Below, piece by piece: positions 12,501 through 35,492 of a stretch of 64,000 nucleotides of DNA. This DNA comes from Amoebophrya sp. A120. Its lineage: Eukaryota > Protista > Dinoflagellata. Position numbers and translations under genes: made by a program. The notes beneath the pieces were generated by a model. That model was given only the letters and a program-made list of their open reading frames with translations, had not been told where the DNA came from and searched no databases. The stretch lies in NCBI GenBank assembly GCA_905178155.1, contig CAJINV010000012.1, positions 181,271 to 245,270 on the forward strand, in the 5' to 3' direction. The stretch's first letter is position 1, and every line of letters starts with the position of its first letter.

Positions 12501-15500
12501 GCTCATGGAAGTGCCAGAATCGAAATTGACAAAATCGAAATAATTTGTCATGCAAAAAATTATGGATTCCAGTTCGAACCCAGTTTCTAAGTGGTGCATC
12601 ACAAATTCTGGTGGTGCCTAAAGCCACGCTGTAATGCTGGCTAGGCAAAGAAGACTGAGTCTCTCATGCTGCTTTAGCAGCTCGATCTCGTGCTGTAACC
12701 CCAAACAGGCTCACAATCGGCCTCACTTGCCTGCTCTGCAACACACGTACTTCGCGTCATGCATTTTTTGCATCGCAAATTTTTCGACTTTGTCAATTTC
12801 GATCCTGACACTCCCATACTGCTCTGGGGCTTCGTGTTCGTTTTCGCGGCGACCACTTGACAAACCTCCACCACTTTTTTAGAAACAATCCGCAGCTGCG
12901 GGGGCAACGGTTGCACAACTACATCACACGCCCGATTTCTTTTCGCGCACGGGCAAGACGAAGGCAAGCATGTCCATCGACGTTCTTCCGCCTCGACGTG
13001 GGAACTTTTCTGTCTAGCAGCCTGGTCTGAGTCGTCTGCCCCCACAGCTACGCGGCCTCCTAGTGGCCGACGAGGACTGCTTGTTGACTATGCATCGCAA
13101 AAGTAATAAACCATACTGGTAGTAATGCTGATTGGAATCCCGCATGACAGATCTCTCTCCGAAGGCAGATCACCAGCATTACAAATGATCTCCTTTCTCA
13201 ACTTGAGAAAGTTTGTCTTTGTCATGCAATTACTATACATTATATTCATGCGAAAAAAGAGGTAGACAGAGGGTCCCAGAGAGGTGGCCGAGAGGTAAAA
13301 AAGATGTCGACAGAGGTAGAAAAGAGGTCGACAGAGGTGGAGAGGTGGCGCGGGACCCCGTTCGAGAGGGTCCGCGAGAGGGTGCGCGAATAAGGCCCGC
13401 AGTAAGCGCCCACCCTTAGGCGCCGCCTAAGTGGCACAGAGGGTGCAGAGAGGTCAAAAAGAGGAGGCGCGAGAGGTCGACAGAGGTGGAGAGAGGTGTT
13501 GCGAATAAGGGGCGACCTCTCGCGGACCCTCTTGGCCACCTCTCGGCCACCTCTGTCGACCTCTACCCGCGAGTATAGCCGGATTATTAGTGGGGACCCC
13601 CAAAAGAGGTCAAAAAGAGGGTCTGCGAGAAGTCTGCGAGAGGGTAAAAGCACAAAGAAGCGGGCGCGGATCCGCATGGTAATGCCCATATTTGGCACTG
13701 CAGGCCATTCGCGGACTTGTTTTGTTCGGCGCCTTTCCGTGCCACCCTCTCGCGCACCCTCTCGCGCACCCTCTCGCGCCACCCTCTCGCGCCACCCTCT
13801 CGCGCACCCTCTCGCGCCACCCTCTCGCGCCACCCTCTCGCGCCACCCTCTCGCGCCACCCTCCCGCGCCACCCTCTCCCGCCATGCGGCTTCTGTTCGC
13901 CCCCGGTGTTCTTTGCAGCTGCTCCCTGCGCAGAGCGCCCACAGGCGCGGGAAGCGCGCAAGTGGTCCTGCGGCTTGGCAAGGCGCAAATCGGCGGCAGG
14001 AATCCAGTATTTTTCGTTGTGCCTACTAGGCCCGTGGGGTTGTGGTCCGAGCGGCAAACAGCCTTGCCCCGGCCCAACAGCCTTGCGCTCCGGCGGCAGC
14101 CGGAGCATGGCTGGTTTCTACTAATACGGTACTTTTGCAATGCATATTGACGCGTCGATGACAATGGTTTTGGTTCTCCGCCGCGCGCCGGACAGCTTTC
14201 GACATGCTCGTCTACTTGTACTTGATGAGCCCACTCTTTGTTGTAGACCTTGTTCCTGCCGGTAGTGGTGACCAGCGCGCTGCAGCTGAAGTAGGTGCAG
14301 CTTTTCATCGTCTTCGTCTTGCAAGAAATCGTGACAAGGAGAACTCACATTCCTCTTACTCCCGCTCGTCGCGGAACAAGAAGGGGAGGCGGAAACACAT
14401 GTCTCCTGTTTCTTCCCGCATCCGCCCGGGTTAACGTGCAACAAGGGCGGGGCGGTCGTCTGCTTATTTTCACGTCCAGGTTTTTCTTCTCGTTCTCGGG
14501 GTCGGGGTAGTGGAAGTGGTATTAAGCCGCTCGACATAGAAGAAGTTTTGCGCCTGTTTGTGGTCTCCTCGTGGTCTACTTTTTCTCCGCCCTGGCGGAG
14601 TCGCCTTCTTGGGGAGACCGAAATCCGGGCCATTTCGTATAACGTGCTCAGGTGTTACAACAATCTCTTCAAACGGGACTCCAGAGTATGGAATTTGTGT
14701 TGCAAAATGCGCAACATCTGTCCTAGCCTCGCAGGTGGGCGCATGACAAGTTTCGGACCTCCAAACCCAATGAGAGTCTGGCGAAATTTGTATTGCGAAA
14801 AGCCCAATTTATCTCCGTATAGTGCTTATGCTATTCATGCAAGACAAATTCCGGATTCTATTGCAACAGTTGAGATGGTAAGAACACCTGAGCGGGCCAT
14901 ATTTCGTGGCAGAAATCGGTGACGTTGTCCACCACCACGACTTCGCTTATGAAAGTGCACAACCCCCTCCCTCTCCATTGTATTGCATGAGCAGCAACAC
15001 AAACCCCAGCACACGTGGAGCCTGAGCATGACAAGTTCGTGCGCCGACTGTAGTACCATAACTATTTGGGGGCTTCCATAATTTCTTTGTCGTGCAAACA
15101 GCGCTACAAGGCAGCAGCTGGATTTGGCATTTTGCATGACAAACTAGCGGGAGGCGGAGTTGTGCACTGTCATAGCACTCATCCAGCTTCCAGAACGGCT
15201 CCGTACACCGCTACAACCACGGCCACGACCTCCGAGTGTGGCAGTAAAGGACGTCCTATGAATTGCAAAACAAGTATCGCCCTCGTAGTAACCATAGCCA
15301 TGCATTACAAACCTCCTTCTTGAGGTGGATTCGCATTACAAATTTCGTTTCTCATGCTGAAAAAATTTGTCATGCGATTAATACTAGTACGATACTTTTG
15401 CAATTCATACGTCCTCTGCGCCATCGATCTCCGCTTATGTTTGTGCACATCGTGCAAGGGGGACGCGAAGTATTCCAGGTGGTCGGCTGTCCCCTCCGAA

Positions 15501-18500
15501 GAAGTGCCGCCTTCCGTAGACCGGCCGGTGTAGATCTCGGCTTGGTGTTGTAGATGTAGTAGCACTGAAGAGGCTCTCGCCGAGGACGGAGGAGGAGGCG
15601 GAGCGAGGGCGAGTATCGAAGAAAAAAACTGTTTCACTGTAGACTTGTAATGCAGAAAATGCATCTAAGAAGTGTTTGTCTTGCTACACATGCAAGAGAG
15701 TCGATTTTTAGCTGTGTTTTCTCTTAGGAACCTCGCATGGCAAATTTTCCCTGTCATGTAGAGCAAACCTGTGATGCAAAACTTGCAAAATCCTTGCTTA
15801 CAGTGAAACACTTTTTTTCTTGGATAACGAGTCCTCGTGGACTAGTGTCGAAGTCGTAGGTCGTTATGAGAGTGCACAACCGCCTCTCCCCCTCATTTGT
15901 CATGCAATTTCCCAAATCCAGGCTCTGCCTCTTGGCGCTGTTTGCATGACAACTTCTGCTAGCCCCCAAGTAGCACTGCACTCCATTGTAAATTTGAATT
16001 TGTCATGCAAGACCGGCATTCTTGCTGATGCTTGTACTACTGCCGTTCATGCTATACAAATGAAAAGGAGGGGCAGTTGTGCACTGTCATATAGAAGGTC
16101 GCAGCAGCATTATAATCTTCCGGAACAAGTGCTCGTCTAGCTGTGGTTGCAGTTTGGTTGATGTGCTGCTTGTGGTTGTAGAAGAAATCCTGGCCATTGC
16201 CTGCTGCCCCCACAAGCTGCTTATGGTCATTAACATTATCACGACACAGATGTTGGCCTCCGTCTTGGTAACTGTATCGTCCTCTCTTTATTTCTGGTTG
16301 ATGGTCCTCTACCGATTCCGATTCGCTTACCTCGTCTGCTGCGTGTGTGGGTACCGCAGTGGCGGGATACTCGAAATTATCGAGGAAACCATCTTGGGTC
16401 GGTAGTAATGCGGTGGCTCTCGTCTCCCCACAAGGGCGACCTTGTCCAACATGCGTCACTTGTTCTTCGTGCCCTCCAGGCCGCACTGGCAGCGGCGGGT
16501 GTGAGGTGGCACGGCCGCAAGTATAAGTCCGTCTTGTTGTGGAAGTGGTGCGATTAAAACGAAACGCGTCCTCGTCACGACAGGGGGCGGCCGCGTTCGC
16601 GTTGTTTATGCTTCTACTACGCCGCTGCTCAGGACGAGCAGATGAAAAACGACCGTTGCCAACATTTTTATCGTTCGCAACTACATCTTCGACCTGTGAC
16701 GTAGTTGGTGCAACTTGTTCGTCTTCAATCGGTAAAAGTATCGCTTTCCCTCCACGAAGAACTTGCTCATGATCTTCATCGCATATCCCAGCTCTCCCCC
16801 GCCGAGCTGAATTCAATTCCCGTTGTTCCTTGTCTTGCCCTTCCCGCCGGGACGAGGAAAACAACATCGCCCCACACGCGGTGCGAACTCGCAGACAGGC
16901 CGCGGTGGCGCGGGTAGAGAGATTCTGCCACCAGTCGAGCAACTGCCAAGTTAGGGAGGACGCGCGCTGCATGTCCAGGATTTGCTCCGTCAGCGCGTCT
17001 AGGTCGCGCACGAGAAGTGTAGTGGAGGCCATCATCGTCGTGTCTGTTCTTGATGTTGTTCTCCTCGATGATTCCGCGTGAAGAGCGGCGGAAGATGAAC
17101 CTTGATGGTCCTGCTCCTCGCGAGAGGTTCTTGAAGTGCCGCTGGGTCCTCGTCGCGTGGTACTTCTAGACAGAGCTGCTTCATCCACAACTCCGGTCGT
17201 GCCTACCTTGTGGTCGCGGGATGGACCGGCGAGTTGTGGACGAGTCTGCCGTCGTGTAGTCGGGGCGGTGACGCTCTTCACCTCCACCACATACTCCTCA
17301 ATGGCAACCAGGTCGGCCTTGCTTAGTTCCACTTCCTGGTAGAAAAATGCCCGGAACTCCTTGCGGTGCTTGAAATACAGCAGCCAGGCGAAGAACACGG
17401 GGAAGAAGAAGACCAGGAAGAGAGTATCATATGTAAAAACGTCCCCACCCCATAGTCAAGTTGCGAACCTAGCAAGACAAATCCACAAGTTTTGGGAGCC
17501 ACGCATGAGAAGTTGCAGTGCGTAGTGTAGTGCATGTTAGCAAGGACAACCATAGATCACAAAGCCGTCTGCTTATCCTCTTTACAGCATTACAAATTCC
17601 AAAACGCGATTGGAAATGCCTCTCATGGAGATGCGCATTACAAATCGTCCTGTAATCGCAAATCTGCATGACAGCTATGGGGTGGGGACGTTTTTACTCA
17701 GGATAGAGAGCCTTCAGGTTGATCGTGAAGTCCAGCAAATCGTGGGGGTCCACCGGAACGTCTTTTGCAGCCGGGTCCACCGCGGCGGTTCCTCGCAGAA
17801 GGTGGCGCTGGATCCGCTCGTGTACAACGGGCACATCTACACCACCCGTAGAGGGCCATGACCCTGCAGCTGCGTGTCCATCTCCTGCTGCGGTATGGGA
17901 GTGTCAGGATCGAAATCGATAAAGTCGGAATAATCTGTATAATGCATAAAATGCTACGCAAAAACGGACTCTATTGCAGAGACTGCAAGGGAGGCCGATC
18001 ATAGTCCTGGCACGGGTCAACAGTTGGGCTGCTGACTAGCATGACAGAAGGCAGCTCTTTTGCAATAAACCGCATCACGGATGCGCTTCCAAGGCGGGGA
18101 AAATTTGTCATGCGCCGACTACAAACTGTGGGTCTAACTGGCATCGAGTTTGTGCATCACAAATTTTTCGATTTTGTCATATTCAGATTCTGACACTTCG
18201 ATATGCGGCGTCTGCATGATACTCCTCCCCACCCCCTCCAGGTAGAAGAAGGGAAACAGGAAGCAAAAGGAGCAGCCGGTCGCGAAGAAAATTACCGCTG
18301 CGTCCTCTCGACGGCGCGTCCACCTGCGCCTGTGGTGGTGGGAACGCACCAGCCCCTGTCGGATCGAAGAAGCCCCCGATGAAAGAAGTGGCTCGACCAC
18401 TACTAGCAGACCCGGACTGGTGGGCGAAGAAGTGGCACTCGATAAACGACCGGAAGATGGAAGGTCCCGCTTTGGCGGTCGGGTATAGTTTCGGCAGGAA

Positions 18501-19520
18501 CAGGAAGAGGAGGAACAGAGAACAGAGGAGCAGGTAACCCACCCACTGGTAGAACAACACGACCCCGGAGAGATCAAGTTTTTTCCCGGTCTGAAAAATC
18601 ACCTGCACCTGCGCACTGTTGATTTCCTCTGCCGAGACTGCCGCCGACGCACGCTTATCAACTGCAAAGGTATCGCACTCGTAGTAATCGCAGTCATGCA
18701 TTACAAATTTTTTTCTTAACGTAAATCCGCATTACAAATTTCATTTCTCATGCTGAGAAAATTATTTGTCATGCATTTATACGAGTACGATACTTTTGCA
18801 GTTCATAACGATTAGTTTTCAACAACGAAGCGCCAGCTCCTGTTCCTACTGCCTGTTGTGGTTGACAGTTGATTCTTTCGTCTTCTGTATCAAATGCAAA
18901 TATGTCTGGGTCTGAAAACTTGTAGTGCTGAATTGTGAGAAGTAGTGAACTCTCTGTAATGCACGGCCAAGCATGAGAAATATTTGCGCGGCCTAGTGCT
19001 GCGCTTTCAGCATGACGAACTGCGTTTTGCATGACAAGCACAAGGGTCTCTTCTTGGGCACGCATCACAAACACTTCAGTCATGCCAGACAAGCATGACA
19101 AACCTTGCGTCTTTCCAGACCCAGACATATTTGCATTTGATATTCTCGTCGTCCTGATAATTCTTCACGTCCACGACCCACGCCAACGGCAGAAACCGAG
19201 AGAGATGTTCTTTGTTCTGGCGGTTCAGGACCACCGTCGAGGCTTTTCCTTTTTCCACTCGAATCATTTTCCCCACCAGCGATCTTGTCCTGCTTGACTT
19301 GGTCATTCGTCCTTCCCGCGAATAAAAGAAGGTTCTTCTGGTGGTGTTCCCGCTTGCTTTGCAGCGAGGCGTGGTTCTTTCGGCTTCTGCGCAGATGCCA
19401 CAGAAAGGTCTCGGCCGCGATAGTGGCCGCGGTCACGTAGAAAAAAATGAACCCGCTAGCCGTGGGGCACAGGCGACACGGAATGGGGGTCTGTTCTTCG
19501 GCAGCGAAAAAATTCTCCAT
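485..19520 (-). CDS. P5-type (ATP13A-like) P-type ATPase, multi-exon, 3' end continues left of 485 / outside the window
   Basis: Spliced translation gives, in order: N-terminal P5 segment (FFYQEVELSKADLVAIEE); RSIFFQNQKLHYD; FGKNEVEIEIP followed by TM1-2; A-domain LVPGDIF...VPCDCVLLQG...NEADLTGEPMPVSK; HFLYCGT; GLVIHTGSYTLNGSLVRKILFP; TM3-4; phosphorylation motif CLDKTGT (505-519). Start ATG at 19520. One canonical GT-AG intron at 1162-1537; the other interruptions found are TIR elements. Confidence 0.9.
543..698. mobile_element. Introner family A
   Basis: TIR TATGAACTGCAAAAGTAT / ATACTTTTGCAGTTCATA; TSD TTCTC on both sides. Confidence 0.92.
907..1070. mobile_element. Introner family F
   Basis: TIR TATCACAGGGAAAAGT / ACTTTTTCTTGTGATA; TSD CCATG; removal joins GLAM to AQKF. 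Confidence 0.9.
2397..2712. mobile_element. Introner family E
   Basis: TIR TATGGAACTGTCATGATCGAAATTGACAAAG / CTTTGACGATTTCAATCCTGACGCTTCCATA; TSD CCAGG. Confidence 0.9.
2713..3686 (-). CDS. P5 ATPase exon containing the actuator-domain TGE motif
   Basis: ORF 2693-3577: WVTVNSIELVPGDIFQIPESGIVPCDCVLLQGNVLMNEADLTGEPMPVSKLPL. Confidence 0.9.
3687..3980. mobile_element. Introner family C (TSD eroded; canonical GT-AG splicing possible)
   Basis: TIR TATCATATGTAAAAATGTCCCCAC / GTGGGAACGTTTTTACTCACGATA; homologous to 6096-6365 and 17425-17705. Confidence 0.85.
4045..4189. mobile_element. Introner family A
   Basis: A-type TIRs; TSD TGCCC. Confidence 0.9.
4268..4517. mobile_element. Introner family H
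   Basis: TIR TATGACAATGCACAAC / GTTGTGCG...CTCATA; TSD TTCGG/ATCGG. Confidence 0.8.
4800..4949. mobile_element. Introner family A
   Basis: A-type TIRs; degenerate TSD ACACT/GAACT. Confidence 0.85.
5039..5288. mobile_element. Introner family D
   Basis: TIR TATCAAATGCAAAAATGTCTGGGTCTG / CCAGACCCACACACGTTTGCAATGCATA; TSD degenerate. Confidence 0.8.
5338..5607. mobile_element. Introner family D
   Basis: D-type TIRs (ATGTCTGGGTCTGG / CCAGACCCAGACAT); TSD CGTTG. Confidence 0.88.
6096..6365. mobile_element. Introner family C
   Basis: C-type TIRs; TSD CGTCC. Confidence 0.9.
6423..6574. mobile_element. Introner family A
   Basis: A-type TIRs; TSD AATGG. Confidence 0.9.
7044..8641. mobile_element. 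Introner family H enlarged by a nested transposon
   Basis: Left end TATCAGAGTGCAGAAC...CCCCTC, right end GAGGGG...GTTGTGCA...CTCATA; TSD TAGTC/CAGTC. Confidence 0.75.
7269..8579. mobile_element. Non-autonomous TIR DNA transposon (8-bp TSD) nested in an introner
   Basis: TIR GGGAT...GGAACTGTCTAAACTGACAACGGAAC / GTTCCGTTGTCAGTTTAGGTAGTTCC...ATCCC; TSD TTAATTTT. Confidence 0.8.
8910..10105. mobile_element. Introner-like element (family I) with an internal ~1-kb insertion, flanked by a 35-bp direct repeat
   Basis: Inverted ends CGTTAGCATGAGAAGTGGTGAATTTG / CAAATTCACCCTTCTGTATGCTAACG; flanks 8875-8909 and 10106-10140 match at 34/35. Confidence 0.65.
10141..10379. mobile_element. Introner family G
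   Basis: TIR TATGGTGTTCTCAACTGTTAC / GTAACAGTTGAGAGCGCCATA; TSD CCTGA. Confidence 0.9.
10491..10721. mobile_element. Introner family H
   Basis: TIR TATAACAGTGTACAACTC / GAGTTGTGCACTCTCATA; TSD eroded. Confidence 0.8.
11344..11504. mobile_element. Introner family J
   Basis: TIR TATCCACAGTAAATTTCC / GGAAATTTGTATTGCATA; TSD GACGA. Confidence 0.85.
12231..12487. mobile_element. Introner family K
   Basis: Imperfect TIR CATCCAAAAAAAAACTGTG / CACAATTTCTCTTCTTGCATA; TSD CTGCT/CGGCT; removal restores the frame. Confidence 0.7.
12504..12818. mobile_element. Introner family E
   Basis: E-type TIRs; TSD CTGCT. Confidence 0.9.
13089..14146. mobile_element. Introner family A with a nested ~880-bp insertion
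   Basis: TIR TATGCATCGCAAAAGTA / TACTTTTGCAATGCATA; TSD TTGAC. Confidence 0.8.
13741..13884 (+). repeat. Minisatellite (GCCACCCTCTCGC)n, ~11 units of 13-14 bp
   Basis: Directly visible tandem array; related GAGAGG(G)T motifs occur in inverted orientation at 13258-13645. Confidence 0.9.
14638..14901. mobile_element. Introner family G-like
   Basis: TIR TATAACGTGCTCAGGTGTT / AACACCTGAGCGGGCCATA; TSD TTTCG. Confidence 0.85.
14948..15174. mobile_element. Introner family H
   Basis: TIR TATGAAAGTGCACAAC / GTTGTGCACTGTCATA; TSD TCGCT/GCACT. Confidence 0.85.
15257..15409. mobile_element. Introner family A
   Basis: TIR TATGAATTGCAAAA / TTTTGCAATTCATA; TSD CGTCC. Confidence 0.9.
15614..15826. mobile_element. 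Introner family L
   Basis: TIR TATCGAAGAAAAAAACTGTTTCACTGTA / TACAGTGAAACACTTTTTTTCTTGGATA; TSD GCGAG/ACGAG. Confidence 0.85.
15865..16091. mobile_element. Introner family H
   Basis: TIR TATGAGAGTGCACAAC / GTTGTGCACTGTCATA; TSD eroded. Confidence 0.82.
17425..17705. mobile_element. Introner family C
   Basis: C-type TIRs; TSD GAGAG. Confidence 0.9.
17894..18203. mobile_element. Introner family E
   Basis: E-type TIRs; TSD TGCGG; empty site in paralogue at ~40522. Confidence 0.92.
18656..18807. mobile_element. Introner family A
   Basis: A-type TIRs; TSD ACGCT/ACGAT; empty site (single ACGAT) at ~41302. Confidence 0.92.
18888..19142. mobile_element. Introner family D
   Basis: TIR TATCAAATGCAAATATGTCTGGGTCTG / CAGACCCAGACATATTTGCATTTGATA; TSD TTCTG/TTCTC; empty site at ~41377. 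Confidence 0.92.
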
Positions 19521-20435: not shown

Positions 20436-21146
20436 GGGAGGCTGTTGGCTGATCGATGTTCAGTGATTTCACCCTCGCGCTCTTGCAATTTTGCGACGAT
20501 CCCTTGCCAATTTTCCTGCTGCGCGTCATGATCATATGCGGTGGCAATGCGCTTTCTTTGCAGTGCGCCCGCTTAGCTTTTTTTGTACCAGTTGGAAGAA
20601 CTGTTCTTCCCACCTATCAGGGTGCCAGCGCTGTCACGCCTATCAGGGTGACGAAAGGTCGCCATGCCCAACAGAGTAAAGAATCTTCTACCTCCGGGCC
20701 GCGCCGACGTATAGTGAAAAGCCATCCTGCATGTACTGTGCCCAGGATTTCCCTTGAAAGATCAAGGCTGTCCATAAAAGTTCTAGTAGGCCTCTTAAAC
20801 GTAAACCGTACTACGTTGAAATAAAGGACACAGACAAAAATTTAAAATTTTGCTATTACGAGTTGACCAGTCGTGTAGCGGAGATTTAGGTTTTAGCATT
20901 TAGGAAGCGGATAGCCACCGGAGATTTTGGCGCGGGTGGGAGCAGCAAGTTCTGGACGCGGCAAACCGGGATTACTTCGACCCGAACCTCGACGCTCAAC
21001 GGAGCCTGGAGCCTCGGGCTACCAACGTCCTGGACTGGATGCAGCGCCGCCGCTTCTTGCTTATTCTTTTTGTTTTTAGCATGCTGAACTAGCTAAACCT
21101 GCAGGCGCATTAGCTAGCTAAATTACGTACTACTAGCTACTAACTG

Positions 21147-21185
21147 ACCCGAAATGTAAGTAATTTTAGCACGGAACTAAGGGAG
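21147..21185. repeat. Inner inverted repeat, left copy (pairs with 31876-31913)
   Basis: ACCCGAAATGTAAGTAATTTTAGC...CTAAGGGAG versus CTCCCTTAG...GCTAAATTACTTACATTTCGGGT. Confidence 0.85.
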
Positions 21186-21731
21186 TGCGATAGATTCTTT
21201 CTCACGTGTCCGGGCACCGTCGACCAGTGGTTTCCGCGGCGCAATATGGAGGGTATACGGAGGAGTTCTGGCCTTGTTGCACCATCTAGGAACGCCAGGG
21301 CCGGTGACTAAACATTGCGGAAGAGTCGCATCATTAGGCCGCGCATGACAGATTTGGTGACAAATATAGGCATTGCGTAGGATGCAAATCTGCCCGAATA
21401 AGGCGAATTCTGAGACGTCGGCGCAGAGAGTGATAGTGCAGCCCTTGTGCGTACAATATGACCAGCCTAGGATCAATCTCGGTCGAAATCAGGTCGGTCG
21501 CAGGTACCTGAGGAAGTTGCATTGCGAAAATAAACACACTTCGAGCATTACCAGTGTCAGGACCCTAAAGATTCCGCTATTACGTCGTAAATAAGCACAT
21601 TCTGCATATCCGTTTGCAGCAGCACATCAAAACTGATAGTGGCCCCACCACTACACTTGACTACTTTACCGCTAGCAGTGTAAAGTCCGAAAGGCAATAA
21701 GTTTGGGCAGAAATGGCGCAACATACAGCAA

Positions 21732-22451
21732 GTGGCGCACGGCCAGGAGCAAATAGATACCGAAGACGAAGGAATTGCAAGACTTGCAGAAGCACTAGGC
21801 GAGCAATTTCGGGTGCGGAGGTTGTCGGAGGTGTCCCACGACATGTCTGTTGTGCCGTGGAATCACCCCGAGGGCGACGAGACCCAGGATGGCGACAACG
21901 TGTATCCTATCCAAGTGAAAACATCGAAATCTACGGACTTTGGCGCGTGGATGCGAAAAGTAAAGTTCGAAACTCAAAAGCATGCCTCTTCGTGGCACGG
22001 TGGCGCGGTTATCGGCGTGCATAAAGATCGAGACGACTACCTTCTGGTCGAAGTGCATCAGCACGAAAACTGGGAGCCGATCAGCCTCGGCGACGATCAG
22101 TGGTGGTATTCGCCTACCGCTCTCCGCACCAAGATCCAGCAGCTCTGGGTAGCGGGAGGCCTGCAACTGGAACCTTTTGCCGACCGTCTGGCCAGCCATA
22201 AAAGCCAACTGGTGGAGCTGCGTATGCGGCAAAAATTCCGCAAAAACCTGAAGCGCGCCAGGTGGGAGCTGGACTTGCCGGAGCACGAGTTTACTAGTAT
22301 TGACGCGCGGATGACAAACGAGGACACCGGTACTGTTTTTGCTGTTCAGGAGAAGACGACGAAGCAGCGCCGGGTGCGCGGAAAGTGCCATGGTTATTTT
22401 GTCGACCTCCGGCGGTATTTTCTAACTAGTTTTTTGAAGTTGTCATGCTAA
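21732..22451 (+). CDS. Tandem PD-(D/E)xK-type nuclease (two D...QxK modules); main exon, probably with further exons
   Basis: Module 1: TEDEG...SHDMSVV...YPIQVKTS. Module 2: LVELR...FTSIDARM...FAVQEKTT. The pattern resembles QxK-variant PD-(D/E)xK homing endonucleases. Confidence 0.65.
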   Translation: MAHGQEQIDTEDEGIARLAEALGEQFRVRRLSEVSHDMSVVPWNHPEGDETQDGDNVYPIQVKTSKSTDFGAWMRKVKFETQKHASSWHGGAVIGVHKDRDDYLLVEVHQHENWEPISLGDDQWWYSPTALRTKIQQLWVAGGLQLEPFADRLASHKSQLVELRMRQKFRKNLKRARWELDLPEHEFTSIDARMTNEDTGTVFAVQEKTTKQRRVRGKCHGYFVDLRRYFLTSFLKLSC

Positions 22452-23728
22452 GTTCTACCCTAAAAGCAAGTCGAAAATGATATTTGCAGCACACCATTAG
22501 AACCCGATTTAGCTGTGTGGACTAGCAAACGCCTGAATCTATTGCCCTGGCAGCGCAATAGTAGTCGCAATCTTTTTTCTTATTTGGGCGCGATAGTTTC
22601 TGCGAATCTGCACTGGCCTAGAGCGCTACAGTGCAAATATAAAACCAACCTAATCAAAATGCCTACAGGTCAAATGGCGACGGCTACACTGACATTGATG
22701 TAGTGGCGATGCACCTAAGAATGGAAGACGACCAGCGAAAAAGCCTGGCCGGGACCTTCGTCGTCCCTATCACGGAACTTCGCAAGCGGGGCCATGCGCC
22801 AATACCAGGCAAAAGGTACTGGCATTCTCCATAGCGCGTCTACCTTTGTACTAGAGTACGGAAATTTTGTGCATGCATACGTCGGCTCTAATTTCATAAA
22901 CAAAAACACGCACTTGCGATACCACACAGCATAGACGGTTCTAACAGTAGGAGCAAACTACTTTGTAAACAAAGTATAGCCTGGCGGTGCTACAGAATAA
23001 GTCACAGCGCCAGCATGTTCGGGACCTGGATCGAAATATTTTCGAGCGAAATTTGCCAAATATCGAGCAGCAAGCACCCTCGCACATTGATTCTCCAAAA
23101 TATAAAACTTTGAAAACCAACAGGAATAGATGGAGACCGACAGTCAGTATTCCGAGCGCTGACTTAACGGATCCGCGGTGGCAGCGCAGCAGTTCTTGGC
23201 TACTGCCGTACTACTTTGACGGAACGCAACCCACCCTGACGGGAATCAACTAAATGGAGACGCTTTTCACAGGTGAGGAATGCATCCCTTTCCACGCCTT
23301 TGATAATCGAGCTGGGATTTTATTTTCCTCCGCACGGCTCAAATGTAATAGCTCCACGCACGCGTCAGCTCTAGTGTCAAGCTGAACTATTTGACTTCAA
23401 CGCTTATTTCGGGAGAACTTGCTGTAGCGATACGACGATGATTTCTAACACGGAACGAGTCTCCGACTGGTTGAACGGGGATACAGTTTTCTGGGTTGTT
23501 ACAAAAAAAAATCAAGACCATATACAAAAGTAGATCGCTCGAAGATTTACGTTTGTTAATTTTCATATCTGTTCTGCGAACGTACGCACATCACTTGTTT
23601 CAGAGGCGAAGCTCAAATATATTGCATACGAAGTAACAACAAAAAGTGGGAATCTGTAACGCGCGACAACATGTAAAAGCATTCAGCAAATGGAAGCTCT
23701 AAGCTTGAAAATGTGCATGGCAATCATC

Positions 23729-26700
23729 TTACACCGGAGTCATCTCGACGTCATCACTTTTGGAGTGCAGGGACACCTTGTTCACGACTATTGTGTTGTC
23801 TTGTTTGTTGCAATGATGCGCCAACTTTGCCAGCGGAACAAACTTCTTGTTGATTAATTTCAGCTGGTCCTGTTTTCCGTAGATCGTCGCGGAGGGGTTG
23901 GTGATGTCGTTCGGAATGACGTCGCAGATTGGGCTGTACTTCATGTGCAGCTGCTTGCTCTTGTTGTCCGTTTTGTTTTGTCGCTGCAAAACGCTACCGA
24001 TCAGTTTGGAGCAAGCACTGCAGCAGAGGTCCCATTTCTCTTCGTGCAGGACCCGACCCAAATCCGTCCTGCTAGCCGCGCCGGGGATTTGTGATGACGA
24101 GGCACCACCCTCACCCATCCGCGTCCTCACACTGTATGCCAGTTTTCCAATGCTTGTCGGCTTGTTTTTCGTCCAATCGGTCGAGTCGATCACGGCGTCG
24201 TCCCACTCGTGCGGCTGCTCCTCGGCGTATTCCACCTTCAACAAGTGGCAAAGAATAGCGCGCTTCAGGGTGTCGTTGCCGGGCAAAACCGACTCGCTCA
24301 GCATCCGCCACCGGTCTCCGCCAAGAACAAATAGTCCGGCATTAGTCTGTTCCCGAGTAAGACCCGAAACCCAATCAGCAGCATCTTCGGCGACGTCGGC
24401 AAAGGTAGGAGAAACATCGAGCACAAAGCCGCGCTCGGAGGTGCACCAGGACTTTTGTTTGTGTGCTTCAAACTGGAGCGCCAACTGCGCAAAAAAACCG
24501 CACTTCATCTCCGGGATTGTGTCGCCGTCCATGCACCACTCCTGGCGATCCTCGTCAAACACCATCTCCCAGCCGACGCACAGACCCTCATACACGTCCG
24601 CCAGCAGGCACATGAAGTCGCGGGCGTAGTCGAAGGCGAAAAAAGGGGCCGACTTCATCAGCTCCTTCACCTTGTATTTTTGCATCGCGCAACGACTAAG
24701 CGCCGACCAGAACAGGAAGCACTTCTCACTGCAGAGGAGGGAGACGTAGATAAAGCACTCGAGGGCCGAGAAGTGGTAGTTTGAGGCGGTGCAGTAAATC
24801 TTTTTGCTGTCTTTTGCTGTGTTTTTGCAGTCCTCCAAGACTTGTCTCACCTCCTGGTCCATGCTCTCCTCCGCTTCGTCCAAAATGTCCTCTGTCGCCC
24901 ACTTGAGGGGGCCGACACTTTCGGCACGCTTGCAACTCGGCAGTCCCTCCGCAGCAGCTTGTTTCTCTGCTTCGTCGAGCGACCTCGCGGCCTCCGCTAT
25001 TGCGATTGCTTTTTTGGGTTGTGCTAGTAGCTGCTGGGTGGAAGAGAAGAAGGAAGTCAGGTCGCCGTCAACGTCACTGGTGTTTTGTATTTGGGTTCCC
25101 CATTTAATTCTCGCGTAGCACATCTTCATCTGCGTGGTGAGGGTTTTTAGTTCCTTGCGTTTTTCCATCATCCACGTGATGACCCTCCAATGGGCTTCAT
25201 TTTCGTAATCACTACCCACGGTGATGAAGATGCGCGCTAAATACTTTTTTAGAGCCTCTTCGTGACCGTTGGCGAGCAGCTGCCCGAGCCCGATCTCGAG
25301 CACGCTTGGCTGCGTCTTCCTGGCGCGAGAAACTGAAAGCCGGCGGATGATGTAGGGGGGGAATTCTATGCACTTCCGCCCCATCAGGCTGAAGAACATA
25401 TTCGCCGTGGGATCGTACAATTGGAAAAGAGCATGTCGCGCCAGCAGTTGCAGGTAGGCCAGCGTGTGCGTGACTGTTTGATTTGTTCTGCAGCTGCGCG
25501 CTGCTGCTCTTGCACATTTTCCGCAGATGTCATGCTCCTTGGACCGGATGGAGAACTGGAATTCATACTGCGAAGAAGCTACTTGTGGAAGGTCAGTCAA
25601 ATCGTTTTGGTGTTTGGTAAGATCTTCCCCTGCTTTCACTTGGGAGGCTTTGAGGATCAACTTGGCGCACGTCGTCAGCGGCGCCGCCATCCGCAAGTGA
25701 TGCTCCGGAATGTCAGACTGTTCGTCGATCTGCGCCAGCAGTCCGTCTATTCCCGCGAACAGCTGCTCGCGGTCTTGTGTATCATTATCAGGAGCAGGCA
25801 CTTTTTCTAGTCTTGCCATCTCGTCTTCATCTTCGGATTCGTTTTCGCTATCCGGCTCCAAATCCTTGTTGCGCTGGTCGATGTTGACCCGGGCAATTCT
25901 AGCCTCTTGCTTTGGCTTTATTTTTTTCCCCTCCTCCGGCTTCAGCAAGTTCTCCACCTGTTTGTCCCGCTTTTTTTGATCTTCTTCTGCCGAAACCGGC
26001 ACGGCGAAGGCGAGCAGGTTCCGGGCGATGGTCAAAACGCAGCGGAAGCGATGTCTGAACTCCACAAAGTATTTGCTCCCATGGGAGACGCGGCTAAGCC
26101 GGCTGGTCTTCAGCGCTTTGACCGTTATCCCTGATTTGATTTCTGTATCAATTCATGATGAAAAATGCTCAAAATATGCATTGCAAATGCTTGAGAGAGC
26201 CGCTACATGGATGTGCGCCAACAACATTCAACACAAGTTGCGCGCCGCACTATTTCACTTCAGGTTTTCCAAAATAAAACACTTCAATTTTATTCACCAT
26301 GGTGTGGTCAACATTTTTTGAAATAGCCTTCAGTTTTCTTTAGGACGACAGGGGTTATTCCAAAAGAAGTTGACCACACCGTGGGGATAGAAATTGAATT
26401 TTTGCTCTTTTATAATTGCACCATGAGTGCTTGAAAAGATGCACGCTTTTCTGTCGAGGCTCGCGTCGAGTACTCTGTCGGATGGGCTCGCTTGAGTACT
26501 CGTTCTTCCTGTGTCCCTTACCGATCACCACCTGAGTCGGTCGATTGCGTTAAGGGACACAGGACGAACGTCCACTACGGCGAACAGGTACATGACACAA
26601 GATTTTGGAGTTTCCCACTTGAGCCAGTTGATCCTAAAAATCGTAAGTCAGAAGTTTATTGAAGTCTTATTATCAAAGTTAAAAAATGAAAAGTACTTTT

Positions 26701-29055
26701 CTTCAGCCCGTCGCGCACACTCAGGCCTTGTTGTCCACACTCCCGCATTACTTCCAAGTGGTGCGGCAAGTTACTGATGTTATCCTCGGCTATTTTTTCT
26801 GCTTCTTCCCGGGCCTCTTCGAACAGGCCGACGCTCTGCCCTGTTCCCATGGGTCCCCTGGCGAACCGCAACAGCCACGCGAGCAGCCTGTCCAGTATTG
26901 TTGCTTTGTTCTCGTTGTTTGTACAACGATGACAATGCGGCAGCTCGGAGTAGCAGATGAGATGATGCTCCATAGCCCGGCAAGCCCTCTGCTCGCTAAA
27001 GTGCTGGTCTGCTCTCAGTATTAGTATTGGAGAAGACCCGTCGGCTCGTAGTATCTGCTCCGAATTTTCCACCACAAGCCAGTTTTTGAAAGCAGGTCCC
27101 AGGATGCCGGTTAACGACTGGAACAAGAAGTCGATGCTGCGTTTAGCTTTCTCATGCTTTCCTTTTGCATGCCTCGGCGTCTTGAAGACCGGCCACATGA
27201 CGATCTTTTGTAGGTAACTGACTCCATTCCAAAACATGCAGGAAGCCTGAAGTTGTGTTGATTGTGCATAAACATGTTATTGCAAAGACTGCAAACACAG
27301 GACAACTCGAAAAACATTAGTACGCGGGGAATTTGCCACGCAAAGAAAAGAGAAATCAATCGGGTAGAGCTTCGCACTTTCAATTGATACGCTCACGGCC
27401 CGGACCGCGTGCCTGGCTTTTGTCGAATCATCAAAGCCGACCGCAATTGTGAGTGCATGGCACGTGGGTGGTACTAGGTCGTACGAAGAAGCACCGTATC
27501 CACAGTATTGCCATCGTTATGTAGCTCCAGACGGCGACCTGTTTATGCATATTGGTCACTTCATTTGAAACCATTGAAATTGCACACAAGCATGACAAAT
27601 TAGGAAAAGTCAAGGACTGCATGACAGAAGTGCTATCAGTGCCCGCTGCTGATAGATAGACGAATCCGCGTGGTCCCCCACCGACTTCCGGATTGCTTTG
27701 GTAGCTTTTTGCACGTTTTGCATCACCATTTCGGTGGTCAGTCCGCTTATGTGCTTGATTTCGGTTTCGAAGGCCTCTTTGAACTTGCTTTGCAGCCCTG
27801 CGCGCAAAGTGTAGGCCTGGTTATTAGTTTGCAAGCGTTGCTGCATTTCTGCGACATTATTCTCACACGCAAAGCTCATGAAGTGGAGTGCTCATCAGAA
27901 GACGCGCCAGAAGGCTACTGGAATGCGCGGCCATTATGTATACGATGCCAAGATGCATGACAAACTTGGTTACGAGAAAAGCTATTTAGCCTGATGCCAC
28001 AAGCTCTGGCTGCTTGCTGGACCCGGTCTGCACGTCCAAAAGCATGCTCTGAAACGCTTCGGGGGATGTAGCTTCTTTTCCATCTGCGACGATTGCCGCG
28101 CGGACACTATTGCAAAATCCGTGCGCATTATTTCCGGAATATTTCCACTGGATTATGGCTGTTTAAATCACGACAAAGGTGCTGATAGTAATCAAAGTAC
28201 TGCATTTGTAGTTTTGCATTGCACAAATTAGCATGACAATAATTCGAAAAGTTATCCTACTGCCTTTGTCTAGCAATTTTCAGCCATAATCTGCTTCGAG
28301 CTGACGAGGAGTTTGCAGCTGTACACCCCATTTTGGAAGAGAAATCGCTGCCGCACCATTACCGAAAGATGGGCGAGACCTGCCGCGATATCCTTTTGGT
28401 GCCGGAGAAGGTTCTACTGCTGCGAGGAGAAGAAGCTGCGACGCGGCATCATGCGTTGATCTAAATGCACTGGCGCAACGTGTTCTTCATCATACCATCT
28501 ACCTCAACTACATCGTGCTCACTGGTCACGAAAACGAACGACGTAGTTTTACCGTTCTCCTTTTGGCGGCTCCGAGAGCGATAACCTTTGCCATGGCTCT
28601 CTTCAGACCAACAGCTCTCCCTCGCGATCACTCAAAGACATCAGCAACACGGATGCCGGAAGACGATTTTGCTACACTTGGTCACGACAGCAGCATACTT
28701 CGAAGCGATACAATGAACACATGGCTAGGACTGCAGCGGCCATCTACATCTTGGACGCATTTCGAGCTTTCTGGTATATGTTTTCTAAATCCCTTGACTC
28801 CCAGTGAAATTTGTACAAAGTCTTGCCAATTCGAAACAAGTCTCGGTATCAAATTATCTCTCACTCCAATTTCTTCCATCTCTTGTTCAAAATTTAAGAT
28901 GTTCGAGAGCTTCAATGTCGACCATGTCGACTTCATCGGGTTGTATAGTGTCGCAAAGTTCTCCTATCTAAAGGAGAACGAGAGTGCAGCTGGCAGATAT
29001 CAGTTTCGAAATGCTATTGGAAATAGTAATACGAAACAAAAAAATATAATTCCAT
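23729..29055 (-). CDS. Divergent hAT-superfamily DDE transposase, multi-exon (last exon includes the 778-aa ORF 23729-26065)
   Basis: Motifs in hAT order: IAVGFDDSTK (first Asp, 27421-27438); LILRADQH (second Asp, ~27005); LPHCHRCTN (CxxH-like, 26923-26940); KTSRLSRV..KYFVEFR (RW-like helix, ~26090); SWCTSERGF (candidate Glu, 24425-24439). Short GT-AG introns, e.g. ~27247-27323. 5' start is approximate. Confidence 0.7.
26283..26570. repeat. Cluster of fold-back hairpins inside the transposase locus
   Basis: 46-bp imperfect stem 26283-26398; repeated palindrome GAGTACTC at 26468 and 26494; 20-bp stem 26501-26570 (19/20 paired). Confidence 0.8.
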
Positions 29056-29219
29056 CGTAGAAATCCTTGCTGTAATTTAAAACTTTTACGTCATAAATTA
29101 TTGTCGTGTAGAAAACATAAGAGTAGAACTATTTTCAAAAATTGTTATACTCCAGGTAAAGCGACATCAAGATTTACTTTCGCGCTCAATCTGAATCACG
29201 ACACGTCAACCAGATTGAA

Positions 29220-31189
29220 TTACATCATCCTCGGCTCGTTCACGGCAGCGCCAGCCTTCCCCTGCGCCTGAGATTAGTTTGAAGGTGGTGATCAAGGAGA
29301 ACACGTCGATACGCACACTACCACCCGACTATCTTAAGAAAATACAACCCTCCGCAGCAGCTCATCCGAAAAAAGGCCTTGCGCATACTTTTGGACCATT
29401 ACAACGCTGCTGAAGTCTCAAAGTTGGCCAGGCAGTACGACATGCAAAACAAATCTCATGCAAGATAGCGGCTGTATTGATTCGAAAGGTGGTAGACAAA
29501 AAAGGGCTCGACACAAACGAGCTGCACCTTGCCGGCAAACAAGTTGGCGCTCGCACCACGGACACTTTCGGCAGCCTCGGCAGCCGGCGGCGGGCGGCGG
29601 CCGCTGCGGGACTGTGAAGTATAAATTTGGAAAAGTTTTATCATCAATCACTTCGAGTGTTCACCATGCACAAGACCGACTCGGCGAACAGCACAACACG
29701 TGGTGTCGACTTCTACTCATGCAGCATCAGATAAAACATCATGCAGAAAGGTAGAAAATATACCCGGTCGTTGTTGTTCACACCCGGGGCCGGGGCCTTC
29801 GGCGGGGTCGCGGCGGCCTTCGGGATGACATCCGGCATCGCCACGTCCGCCGGGGCAGCAGCAGCAGCAGCTTTCGGCATGTTCAAGCTCAAGTTCAACA
29901 TTTGCTGCGTCATCTGCTGCATCTGGTTCATCTGGTTCTGCATGACGTCGCTGTTCTGGTTCGCGGCGTTCGCAGCGGCAGCCTGTATTTTCAGTGGAGT
30001 GCTGGCATGTTTGTAATGCTGCAGTTCGAAATTATGCATAGTTGTGTGCAACGTTGAGAAAATTTCTTTCGAAGATTAGTGCGTGACAGTGTGTAAGTCG
30101 CGAGACAATCCAATATCAAGCACGCATATAAAAACTGACGTGTGAATCACAATGTCGCTGCTGACGCATGCAAGTTGGAGTCGCTGCATTACAATGCTCA
30201 ACACGTCACTACCTGGGCGGCGTTCGCCTTCGCCTGCGCCGCGGCCTGTTCGTTCTCGACCTCGATCCGGGCGTTGGTCAAGAAGGTGCAGATGTTCTGG
30301 GCGTTGGGCAGGGTGATGTTGTTGCGCTGCATCTGCCCCAACATCTGATTCGCCGCACGCGTTTCCGTTGGCTGCCTGCGTTGGAGGTCATCGGGCACCT
30401 CATAAGTTAAAGTACACAAATTAATATATGCACTGGCATCTTCTGTTCGATTTTTTTCAAAACTGTAACGCAGCCGCGCATTATTTGTAACCACTAAACC
30501 GGTGTAATGCAAACGCATATGTAAAATAAGCACTTTTTGAAGTATGCTGCTATGAGGAAGTTCTGTAATCTTTGCACCACAGCATCAAAATATAATATAC
30601 ACGGCCGGTCAGACGCAACTCCTCCAGAAAACGCTCCCGGGTATCCTCGGTCAAATTGTCCTGGATCGCGGTACGCTGGTCGTCCAAAATGGCCGCATCA
30701 CCGTTCTCCAGTTCGCAGGCCTTGATGGTGATCCGGATCAGCACTTGAATCAAAAGACGGCGCCAGTCTGAAGATTTTTTGCGGAAAATTATCAAAGCAT
30801 GCGAAGGCAACCACATACTCACTGCATCACCTTACAGCAATCATATTGAAAAAAAGTACCGGCGGGATTGAGGCGGCCTTCATTAAGCACAACGCGATTA
30901 CCACGGTTCGCCTCACGGAAGTTGTTGTAGGTTTGGCAAATATGCATTGCAAAAATAATAGAATAGCACAAATTGCGCGACGTCTTTTTGCATTCCCACA
31001 GCAAGCTATCGCAGTACAAGTATGCAAAGAATAAGCTTGCTCTTCTGCATGACTGCAATTTTGTGCATCAAAATATTTTTGCATTGGGTAAATAAAGGTA
31101 TCTGCGAGGGCTGGTGGTACTTGGGCTGGATGCCCTATTAGATAAGTAATCGCCTCTCTTATCTGGGCCTGAGTGTAAACAATCGCCAT
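29220..31189 (-). CDS. Multi-exon hypothetical Gln/Ala-rich helical protein (transposon cargo)
   Basis: GC-rich exons separated by AT-rich GT-AG introns: MAIVYTQAQIREAITYLIG..., ...DTRERFLEELRLTGR, ...AANQMLGQMQRNN..., ...MQNQMNQMQQMTQQM..., last exon AQGKAGAAVNEPRMM*. Confidence 0.65.
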
Positions 31190-31875
31190 GGTGGAGGTTT
31201 TGGGTAAAAGTAGTGGCGGCAGAGGGTGCAGTTGTTTCAAGTATAAGTCTTATCTCTCGCTCGAAAACCCTACGGGAATATTTGAAGTCAGAATATTTTG
31301 AAAGGTCCTGTGAAACAAGTATGAGTCAGAAGTTATTTGCCTAAAAAAAAGCCAGACGCTGCCCAACATCACAAAAAAATTTCAACAAACAAAACAGAAG
31401 GCAGTTTGACAGAACGCACGCTCTTTCATCTCGAGATTGTCTTTCATGGTCTGAGATCCAAATTATTTCTTTCGTCACAGCGCTGTAGAGTTTTCATTAC
31501 AAGTTTGCTCCAACAACAACACCAAACTGCGCTGCGAATATCAACCACACACGAGTACTACAATCTTGCTTGACTGGAACACACTTCAAACCATGACGCA
31601 GGGTCTAGGATTTAGAACCTCGGACTCCAGTACTTGAAGTATCGCTTTCTCGCATACGTCGTCTTGTATTTTTCAAAGATAGGTGTTTAGAGTCATAATT
31701 TTGCGTTCTTTTGCATGAATCAGAATGGCTAGAGGAGGGCTGCCAGTAGGTGGGTGTCATAGTCGTTCCTAGATGGTGCAACATGAGCACTCCGGTGCCC
31801 AGTACCGCTCGCAATTGCTTCCGGATCTGGTGCCAGAAAAGAGCTGGACCCTTCGCTTCGGACTATCTGAACTGG

Positions 31876-31913
31876 CTCCCTTAGCTGCAGGCTAAATTAC
31901 TTACATTTCGGGT
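31876..31913. repeat. Inner inverted repeat, right copy
   Basis: Reverse complement of 21147-21185 (23-bp core with one indel, plus CTAAGGGAG). Confidence 0.85.
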
Positions 31914-32524
31914 TCTAGAATACTTTAGCATCTACCTTTCTAGTTTTACCACGTATTGTTTAAAAATTAAAATGCATATGCATGAAAAGCGCCTGCAAAA
32001 AAAACATTTTTAATCTAGCTATTTCAAATGCATATTCAGAAAAATTCAGAAAAACAACCAGCCGCTGGTGGTGCTGTGCGTCCCCGCTTACCTGTACCTG
32101 CCTCCACTCCACTTACCTGTACCCGTTACCTGTACCTGCGCACTCAGTCCCGTGGACAAACCGACGGCGCAGCTGCAGCATAAAATAATTCTGAATTCGT
32201 TCTAGCAAAATTTTAAAATTTTGTCTGTGTCCTTTATTTCAACGTAGTAAACCGATGCTAAATGCCATTAACAAAACCGATGCTAAATGCCATTAACAAA
32301 AACAAGGAGGGGGGTATAGCTTTTTTGCCACTCGCTCAACAATTCAACCTTTATCGGCCAATGTTATTTGGCCGCACTGTAAGTGAAGACGGCCCTAAGA
32401 AAGCGAAAAACAAAATGAAAAATGGCGCTTGCTTAAAGCTATGATCCCTATGCACAAGGCGGATAAGAGGGCTGGCCTCTTCATCCTTGTGCCCATAGTT
32501 TCAACGTGTTGCGCCAATATACTT

Positions 32525-33628
32525 CTACCTTTGATGGAGAGACCTATTGTTCGGCCTAACAACAGTCTTATAAAAATGCCACAATTTTTTGTTGGCAAGG
32601 GGCTGAGCTTCCCTGTTCTCATATGTCCCAGAGTCACGGATGCCGACCCCTTCCTTATAATGAAATTCAAAGGCCTTCCCGAGGGGTTCTTTAAAGAGGT
32701 TTAGCACGGCACCAGTGAAGTCCTGGCAATTCTTTGCGTTCTCTCCGGAAAGTCCTGGCAATCCCAACGGACCATAAACGTCTTCGGCGGTTTCTTGTCC
32801 AGGTGCTCGGGGTAAATTCCTATCTATTCCAACTGCCGTCGAGTGCTCGGGGTAGATTTCTTGGAAGGCGTTTTTTGGTTGGCGGTATGCTGGAGGGAGA
32901 AGATTGGCCCCGACAGGCGGGATGCCTAGGATTTCGTTCTCAAAGGCCAGCCTGTCTAAACCGGCAGCAAAGGCGACAGAACCCTCGCTAAATGGCTCCC
33001 TTGGTCCCTCCCCCCAGTTGGTCTCGACGCAATAGGTTGACTGCGGTCCTTGTTCAATTCTATCGCGTACGCGCAAGGGTATAGGAGGAGACGGAGGCTC
33101 TTGCTCGAACTCGATAAGGTACCCACCTCCCGCCCATTCATAGTGCGCAACTTGCTGCCGCCTCCATTTGTAGCTGGGAGAGCTTTTGCTCTCGCCGAAG
33201 ACTTTGCGCAAGAGGTGAGAACCAAACGGTTTGGCCGGACGTGCCGCGTCGTTCACCCACCACTGCGCCCGGACGAAGTGATGCGCCACCCTTCTTCCCG
33301 CCTGTTTCGGAAGCAATGTGGCGCCCGGTTGAATTGGGCACCACATGGCTTCCAATATTGTTACTGAGGCCGGCTCAAAAAGCGGATTCGCAAGACATTG
33401 GACGTGGTTTGCATAGACTGACCTACCCAGGTTCTCTAGGCCGCGATCCTTGTCATACACATACATCGGGCGTATCTTCCTCTCGATAAGTGCGGCTGCT
33501 GCCACACTCTTTTTTTTGGTTATGCAGAGGTCGGCTGGGTGCTGTTCGGAATTAGTCGGGGGGGGATTTGTCCTGCATAGCTCGAAAGGATGGCGGCTGC
33601 CAACCACATCGAGTGAGAACGTAGCCAA
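32525..33628 (-). CDS. Permuted papain-like (PPPDE/LRAT-type NlpC/P60) peptidase paralogue 1
   Basis: His motif VAHHFVRAQW precedes Cys motif KNCQDF; homologous to 43617-44837 (shared NLFKxPxGKAFxxHY). Confidence 0.6.
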   Translation of the reverse strand: MATFSLDVVGSRHPFELCRTNPPPTNSEQHPADLCITKKKSVAAAALIERKIRPMYVYDKDRGLENLGRSVYANHVQCLANPLFEPASVTILEAMWCPIQPGATLLPKQAGRRVAHHFVRAQWWVNDAARPAKPFGSHLLRKVFGESKSSPSYKWRRQQVAHYEWAGGGYLIEFEQEPPSPPIPLRVRDRIEQGPQSTYCVETNWGEGPREPFSEGSVAFAAGLDRLAFENEILGIPPVGANLLPPAYRQPKNAFQEIYPEHSTAVGIDRNLPRAPGQETAEDVYGPLGLPGLSGENAKNCQDFTGAVLNLFKEPLGKAFEFHYKEGVGIRDSGTYENREAQPLANKKLWHFYKTVVRPNNRSLHQR

Positions 33629-35310: not shown

Positions 35311-35492
35311 ATATTCGCACAGACACAGTCACAGGGCGGAAGGCCACACAAGTTTTATGCCGGAGTCCGGATTTATTTGTCCTCATTTACTTATTTGCTC
35401 AGGCGCGTCCTGCAGAGACCGTTGCTTTCTATGGCCGTCCTGCTGCATTCGCGCTGCAAAATAAAATTCTCGAGCGGGGTAACAAATTAAGA

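Follow-up and report, generated by a model that had tools for sequence, protein, structure and literature searches.

TnpB and Fanzor are RNA-guided accessory nucleases of transposons with a RuvC domain, and TnsA cuts at the element ends for Tn7. The cyanobacterial homing endonuclease I-Ssp6803I (PDB 2OST; PF11645 PDDEXK_5) is a one-domain protein which acts as a tetramer on a 23-bp pseudo-palindrome, according to the available text of PMC3384342. The MIGE of Mimiviridae are outlined in the accessible parts of two reports (bioRxiv 10.1101/299784; PMC4669402) as a single-ORF element, dispersed in giant viruses, which has a zinc-finger motif. The genomes of Amoebophrya contain thousands of introners. 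The available sections of Farhat et al. (2021, PMC7789003) give the motif TAT-N7-AAA for the introners of strain A120 and describe splice sites that vary around a hairpin. The same sections report two putative transposases in strain A25 and none in A120, and they conclude against a general transposase-mediated mobilisation. ORF-bearing introners flanked by terminal inverted repeats (TIRs) and containing an integrase-like sequence are also known, as represented by A120 family 38 in the accessible portion of Gozashti et al. (2025, PMC12130899).

We analysed a window of 64,000 nucleotides from Amoebophrya sp. A120 (contig CAJINV010000012.1, positions 181,271 to 245,270), in which a predicted tandem nuclease is encoded within an 11.4-kb element with introner-type ends. 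The element and its surroundings show the following features (coordinates of the window):

20809-32249, no strand assigned: TIR element of 11,441 bp with ends of the introner class (TAC-N7-AAA ... TTT-N7-GTA), within the 3' UTR of a host gene encoded on the minus strand
20804-20808, plus strand: left copy of the target-site duplication, AACCG, 5 bp
32250-32254, plus strand: right copy of the target-site duplication, AACCG, 5 bp
20809-20864, plus strand: left TIR, 56 nt, 93% complementary to the right TIR with the first 30 nt identical (BLAST E 1e-16)
32194-32249, minus strand: right TIR, 56 nt
21147-21294 (21147-21185 and 21275-21294), plus strand: left subterminal repeats with inverted partners at 31876-31913 and 31764-31783
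32525-33685, minus strand: ORF of the host gene, whose transcript continues past the insertion site to about 20466-20515

The terminal inverted repeats, the 5-bp duplication and the existence of an empty form are all characteristic of a transposon, the joint observed in RNA-type contigs being equal to the empty site. An alternative reading with a 2-bp TA duplication was rejected in favour of the 5-bp duplication. In the DNA-type run X4, which like X5 may be the source of the window itself, the element was covered at the depth of its flanks. The same run contained a second copy of the right end with other flanking sequence and CAGAG beside the end, and a contig joining position 21119 to 26269, which is devoid of the nuclease gene and of an 807-aa ORF (see below). 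Related copies of the element are therefore present elsewhere, and a full-length second copy was not seen in X4. The sequence with the joint may be a plain non-autonomous derivative, which would say nothing on a need for the missing genes in trans. The host gene has a paralogue at 43617-44849, which gave a weak match to Peptidase_C97. A perfect 25-bp tandem duplication was recorded from the right end of the element (32249-32298).

Contigs from three RNA-type runs of one sample (X1-X3) covered the host ORF and its flank to about 20466-20515 at a depth of 172-215. Their RNA type is a presumption of the tool, which is supported by one skipped host intron: the contig leaves the window at 33516 and resumes at 35612, while the DNA-type contig is continuous there, as expected for spliced RNA. 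The skipped 2.1-kb stretch (33517-35611) does not have GT-AG-like ends in the given register. All three runs contained a joint between 20800 and 32247 at a depth of 64-79, which equals the exact pre-insertion sequence, and X1 and X2 showed one additional joint each at a depth of about 40, retaining 8 or 5 extra letters. Most RNA-type contigs of the interrupted gene lack the element with single-base precision. No register of the joints gives GT..AG ends; removal from RNA without such ends has been described for Amoebophrya introners in the available text of PMC7789003 and PMC12130899. The RNA-type contigs leave most of the element interior uncovered, an observation that is uninformative on its own, as is the absence of reads from the raw-read run X6. 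We conclude that the element is likely spliced out of the host 3' UTR in the manner of an introner. A rather unlikely alternative is that the skip was caused by excision in the sampled cells, or by reverse transcriptase jumping across the paired ends at an 8-nt direct repeat. Either event would agree with the strong pairing of the ends (-75.5 kcal/mol) and with the heterogeneity of the joints (one exact, two with 5 or 8 extra letters, none with GT..AG), and the RNA-type and DNA-type runs came from different samples, with the RNA library type being presumed. However, no element-skipping joint was among those listed for X4, the main joint restores the target exactly, and variable splice sites around a hairpin are what the accessible part of PMC7789003 reports for introners of this genus.

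A scan for TAY-N7-AAA ends yielded 29 inverted pairs in the window, compared to at most one in 30 shuffles. Flanking direct repeats of at least three bases were present in six of the 29 pairs, all of exactly five bases, and in none of the 30 shuffles. These six pairs represent the 11.4-kb element and five elements of 153-1058 bp:

543-698, 13089-14146, 15257-15409, 39573-39834 and 47215-47376: small TAT-N7-AAA elements with exact 5-bp duplications

Removing the 1058-bp element resulted in a frame of 149 + 138 codons, and removing the other four in shorter frames. The target 5-mers all differ (TTCTC, TTGAC, CGTCC, AACCG, GGATG and CAGAT, as well as CAGAG next to the second copy of the right end). 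Inverted repeats of the TAT-N7-AAA type and direct repeats of 3-5 nt are shared with the introners described in the available sections of Farhat et al. (2021, PMC7789003), from which the 11.4-kb element differs in the third base of the motif (C instead of T), in bearing genes on a length of 11.4 kb compared to an average of 120-240 nt for non-canonical introns, in its location in a 3' UTR and in carrying a nuclease.

In addition to the nuclease gene, the element contains the following coding or coding-like stretches:

23729-26152, minus strand: 807-aa ORF of no known family
26656-27276, minus strand: 206-aa ORF, probably an upstream exon belonging to one large gene with the 807-aa ORF, with integrase-like motifs by eye only
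27277-31325, minus strand: further intron-broken coding-like pieces with no Pfam match over the cut-off
28305-29060, plus strand: 251-aa ORF

A possible GT-AG intron (26696-26131) connects the 206-aa ORF in frame with the 807-aa ORF, giving about 970 codons. Two nested inverted-repeat hairpins (26278-26403 and 26488-26583) lie inside this predicted intron, and the intron-broken pieces at 29400-31325 (minus strand) include a cluster of Cys residues and a coiled stretch rich in Gln, Met and Ala; no family was found for them. No transposase was identified in the element by comparing 68 ORFs with Pfam, 11 with PHROGs and 10 with NCBIfam, and the 807-aa ORF yielded nothing from these three libraries, a homologue search or an Atlas search. 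Searches for DDE transposases gave no match to a named superfamily, using queries which are broken by introns and have no known relatives. An IS481/ISNCY-like integrase core seen by eye at 27540-27100 turned out to be unsupported: a profile built from 68 bacterial proteins scored below background on each ORF and, with frameshifts and introns allowed, reached 18.4 versus background peaks of up to 26.7. Likenesses to hAT, Mutator and Ulp1 protease, also noticed by eye, were dropped because no library supported them. A search of 20500-32600 against Rfam returned no family over the cut-off and one chance hairpin match far below it.

Exon 1 of the nuclease gene lies in a stop-to-stop ORF of 255 aa (21684-22451, plus strand), which contains two E..D..QxK modules. 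Counting from the codon at 21732 as residue 1, the first module consists of E11, D37 (in HDMSV) and Q61-V-K63, and the second of E162, D191 (in SIDAR) and Q206-E-K208. Enumeration of splice sites against the homologues P0016 and P0019 resulted in one best model with three exons, GT-AG introns and 319 aa, which aligns with P0016 from end to end:

21732-22414, plus strand: exon 1, coding for domain 1 and the catalytic half of domain 2, with the frame open from 21684
22415-22668, plus strand: GT-AG intron 1
22669-22815, plus strand: exon 2, coding for the remaining core of domain 2 (best enumerated splice model, 42% identity to P0016)
22816-23123, plus strand: GT-AG intron 2
23124-23253, plus strand: exon 3, terminated by a stop codon (splice model)

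Exon 3 was recognised by the family HMM with an E-value of 2.7e-4 among the ORFs of the window and the homologous loci. The end of the original ORF at 22451 represents a read-through into intron 1, and the last 11 residues of the ORF described in the earlier note are intronic; domain 2 is completed by exons 2 and 3 beyond 22414. A motif pattern fitted to the nuclease ORF was found in one of 36 window ORFs of at least 200 aa, which is a weak control because the pattern was tailored. Position 21732 is a GTG codon, no in-frame ATG was found for the gene (the ATG at 21713 is out of frame), and in 12 of 16 rows the initiator methionine of the homologues corresponds to His3 in the model. Either an upstream exon is absent from the model or the start codon is damaged. 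The RNA-type contigs over the gene (depth 3-6) cross the intron borders unspliced, and no spliced mRNA of this copy was found in them. The reading frame and splice sites are intact across 319 codons. The copy in the window may be inactive.

A phmmer search against 1.84 billion representatives gave 15 matches at E <= 0.001 with 23-41% identity, all but three of which (P0010, P0011 and P0015) span both modules. The homologues with named organisms are gene models of Amoebophrya sp. AT5.2 (4 of 10 clusters), and a fifth, a EukProt model, is similarly named. Residue conservation was assessed in an alignment of 16 rows, consisting of the window model and 15 homologues and excluding the read-through near-copies P0001 and P0007. 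In the first module, E11 was conserved in 14 of the 16 rows and D37, Q61 and K63 in 15 each, and in the second module E162 and D191 were invariant, Q206 was present in 15 rows and K208 in 11, with four arginines and one gap in the remainder. All eight catalytic positions are retained in the window copy, and the hallmark of the superfamily, an acidic pair plus lysine (E..D..QxK), is also retained in the viral relatives described below. Because the similarity of 7 of the 15 matches breaks off at an Arg-Tyr point which coincides with the start of intron 1 in the window, this intron is old in the family. Five copies in one named Amoebophrya proteome are only 27-46% identical and form three deep branches; the family is old and dispersed in this genus. 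One Amoebophrya model of 1085 aa (P0006) combines a Sacsin domain at its N-terminus (E 8.5e-39) with the tandem nuclease at residues 721-926, and it is either a real fusion or a merged gene model.

Pfam returned nothing over its cut-off for the window ORF or 16 homologues, including the I-Ssp6803I family PF11645. Exon 1 alone yielded 0 of 182 candidates in a word-based search, no match under an E-value of 0.58 among PDB sequences, none by profile either, and none among phages. Scans for loci of the closest subfamily were likewise negative (0 of 138 metagenome candidates, 0 of 51 viral candidates).

The AlphaFold2 model of P0016, based on 18 rows, reached a pLDDT of 86.5 and a pTM of 0.77 and consists of two alpha/beta domains with predicted PD-(D/E)xK folds across residues 1-140 and 154-317. 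Foldseek with this model returned four PDB rows at E <= 0.001, namely the two chains of single-chain PvuII, I-Ssp6803I and MepB. Domain 2 of P0016 was superposed on I-Ssp6803I (2ost_A) by VIA-align with a Z-score of 12.6 and an rmsd of 3.1 over 139 aligned residues, followed by Hjc with a Z-score of 8.5. Domain 1 of the window protein, modelled alone with a pLDDT of 86.4, also matched 2ost_A best (Z 9.7, rmsd 3.4, 119 aligned), and by Foldseek its best match was Hjc at 7.5e-3. Atlas values of 0.81-0.82 to PDDEXK clusters point in the same direction and are under the trust level. The models thus predict the core of restriction endonucleases for both domains, with PD-(D/E)xK enzymes in the top rows. 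The earlier note had described two E..D..QxK modules in one ORF and proposed a tandem PD-(D/E)xK nuclease, with I-Ssp6803I as an example of the QxK variant; the modules were present as written and conserved across the 16 rows, and structure prediction and search (Z 12.6 and 9.7) bore out the proposed fold at the level of models.

We therefore describe the gene product as a predicted single-chain protein with two nuclease domains resembling I-Ssp6803I and as a predicted two-site DNA endonuclease. Profile comparison showed no significant similarity between the two modules (hhalign probability 0.9%, E 0.058), and the duplication of domains is therefore based on the folds. Since the modules are unlike as profiles and the P0016 model gave no whole-protein superposition with single-chain PvuII (TM 0.18-0.23), we infer rather than read from the models a pseudo-dimer geometry that would cut both strands. 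I-Ssp6803I is the best structural match for each domain, but the window protein has two domains per chain with 10-14% identity to it and is encoded by a nuclear gene with spliceosomal introns, which lies in a TIR element and outside any group I intron, the usual host of the I-Ssp6803I family.

Three models from giant viruses, which are uncharacterised, matched the two-domain protein over 342-354 columns with E-values of 1e-12 to 7e-12, compared to 2e-5 for the next row, and seven loci of viral type were obtained in addition:

A0A076FH51 (AaV), A0A1V0SIJ8 (Klosneuvirus) and A0A3G5A8P9 (Hyperionvirus): giant-virus relatives, aligning over both modules and the C-terminal part
L001-L005, L129 and L130: seven AT-rich loci coding for six distinct proteins, aligning over both modules and the C-terminal part

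Pattern scans detected relatives in 4 of 129 and 1 of 167 metagenome-scan candidates and in 2 of 50 viral candidates, the latter two being the same protein; 47 candidates from prokaryote genomes included no member of the viral-type family. The viral-type loci have GC contents of 19-39%, two belong to named giant-virus MAGs and one contains FNIP repeats. Their proteins begin with a Cys/His finger-like N-terminus followed by both modules. A comparison of the Amoebophrya-family profile with the viral profile gave a probability of 96.3% (E 1.7e-9, 240 columns), and the protein of L005 matched PF11645 with an E-value of 5e-4 and 20.4 bits, below the cut-off of 26.1. In an unrooted tree of the exon 1 region, the five viral rows formed one side of a branch (support 100/100), and the five AT5.2-type copies fell into the three deep groups mentioned above. 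Because the tree has no root, we claim no donor. None of 13 neighbouring ORFs in four viral-type loci matched a transposase family, and the longest inverted repeats listed for five such loci included no conspicuous pair with the look of element ends. In the examined loci, the viral relatives are free-standing, with ordinary viral genes and no transposase as neighbours. They differ from the Amoebophrya proteins in their finger-like N-terminus, the lack of introns, the free-standing state and the separate branch. Compared by description only, they fit the outline of MIGE given in the available parts of the reports, whereas the Amoebophrya proteins have no finger. The contig of L005 also contains a GIY-YIG nuclease gene (L005:430-1218) at a distance of 2 kb from the tandem nuclease.

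With a probability of about 0.5, we interpret the nuclease as a homing-type DNA endonuclease which is carried as cargo in an introner-class TIR element and is not its mover. A cargo homing gene is favoured because the viral relatives are free-standing and the Amoebophrya copies old and dispersed, and the gene appears dispensable because the contig of run X4 joins 21119 to 26269 without it. In this reading, the two domains would nick one strand each at a long asymmetric site, and repair of the resulting double-strand break from a gene-bearing copy would favour the gene in the way known from free-standing homing nucleases. The family would have entered an Amoebophrya ancestor once, gained its intron and dispersed at the DNA level, and the host gene would tolerate the element in its 3' UTR because the paired ends permit removal from the transcript like that of the small introners. 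Next in our ranking, and doubtful, is a role at the ends or junctions: together with the large unassigned protein, the nuclease would form part of the mobilisation machinery, cutting at or beside the paired TAY-N7-AAA ends, as TnsA does for Tn7, or resolving branched intermediates in the manner of Hjc, and would move both the element and the small introners. Because no transposase was found in the element, the nuclease stays a candidate for this machinery, in agreement with the end motif and 5-bp duplication shared by the 11.4-kb element and the five small ones, with Hjc resolvases as the next-best folds (Z 7.5-8.5) and with the complete set of eight catalytic positions in the window copy. The eukaryotic homologues may even all lie within such elements, in which case a role in transposition would be favoured. 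This is opposed by the transposase-free surroundings of the viral relatives in the examined loci, by the age and diversity of the family in Amoebophrya including one Sacsin fusion, and by the co-occurrence of nuclease and element at a single locus. A more far-reaching version, which we regard as unlikely, would make the element the master element of the Amoebophrya introners, that is, a transposon of an unnamed superfamily which is spliced out whole and moves itself and the small TAY-N7-AAA introners via the large protein and an end-cutting tandem nuclease of giant-virus type.

The fusion in P0006 points to other uses of the family. A role in the host or in conflict, for example against viral DNA, with the window copy captured by chance or decaying as a passenger, ranks third and appears improbable; it would account for the Sacsin domain, the ancient shared intron, and the missing start codon and unspliced RNA cover at the window copy, but the copies are many, dispersed and only 27-46% alike, the data seen give no hint of a fixed host orthologue, and the window copy retains an intact frame and intact splice sites over its 319 codons. 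The lowest rank, as very improbable, goes to the model in which the nuclease cleaves an empty allele, or the donor site left empty by excision, and repair copies the element back as with TnpB. The fold is that of a homing endonuclease and the site exists in an empty form in the RNA-type data, yet the end class inserts into unrelated 5-mers, which leaves no constant target for a protein-only reader of long sites, and no guide is evident, making such cutting unlikely; the fold is not RuvC and no Rfam family over the cut-off was found in the element. A cargo homing gene hence ranks first among these readings. The earlier note had placed the nuclease inside a DNA transposon, which holds for the TIR element with its 5-bp duplication and lacks an identified transposase. 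Its proposal of sequence-specific cutting at empty or donor sites conflicts with seven differing target 5-mers and no long fixed site, and its analogy with TnpB/Fanzor reduces to a nuclease gene carried inside a mobile element, since Rfam and fold searches revealed a PD-(D/E)xK fold and neither a RuvC domain nor a guide RNA. The proposed link to a transposase found no backing in the element, the free-standing viral relatives or the related X4 sequence which skips the gene.

A gene-bearing element with introner ends and a 5-bp duplication provides named candidate proteins for introner mobilisation. The nuclease represents an unannotated family (no Pfam match over the cut-off) common to a parasitic dinoflagellate lineage and giant viruses, and its models suggest that a nuclear genome encodes a natural single-chain, two-domain version of the I-Ssp6803I fold. 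If active, this protein would represent a new and compact type of long-site endonuclease. Our searches of the open-licence literature returned no description of the family, nor of a nuclease of this kind within a eukaryotic transposon. For the published introners, this statement covers 21 of 58 A120 rows in file 8 of PMC12130899, whose other rows may list the 11.4-kb element, and the word endonuclease does not occur in the 12 searched supplements, out of 14, of that paper.

Elsewhere in the window, the range 36000-63600 contains three diverged copies of a block of 10.5-11.8 kb, which include the host-gene paralogue at 43617-44849. Parts of 18200-19500 are repeated at 40500-41760. At 1520-7042 on the minus strand, exons recognised by eye as P-type ATPase-like are interleaved with many introner-type repeats.
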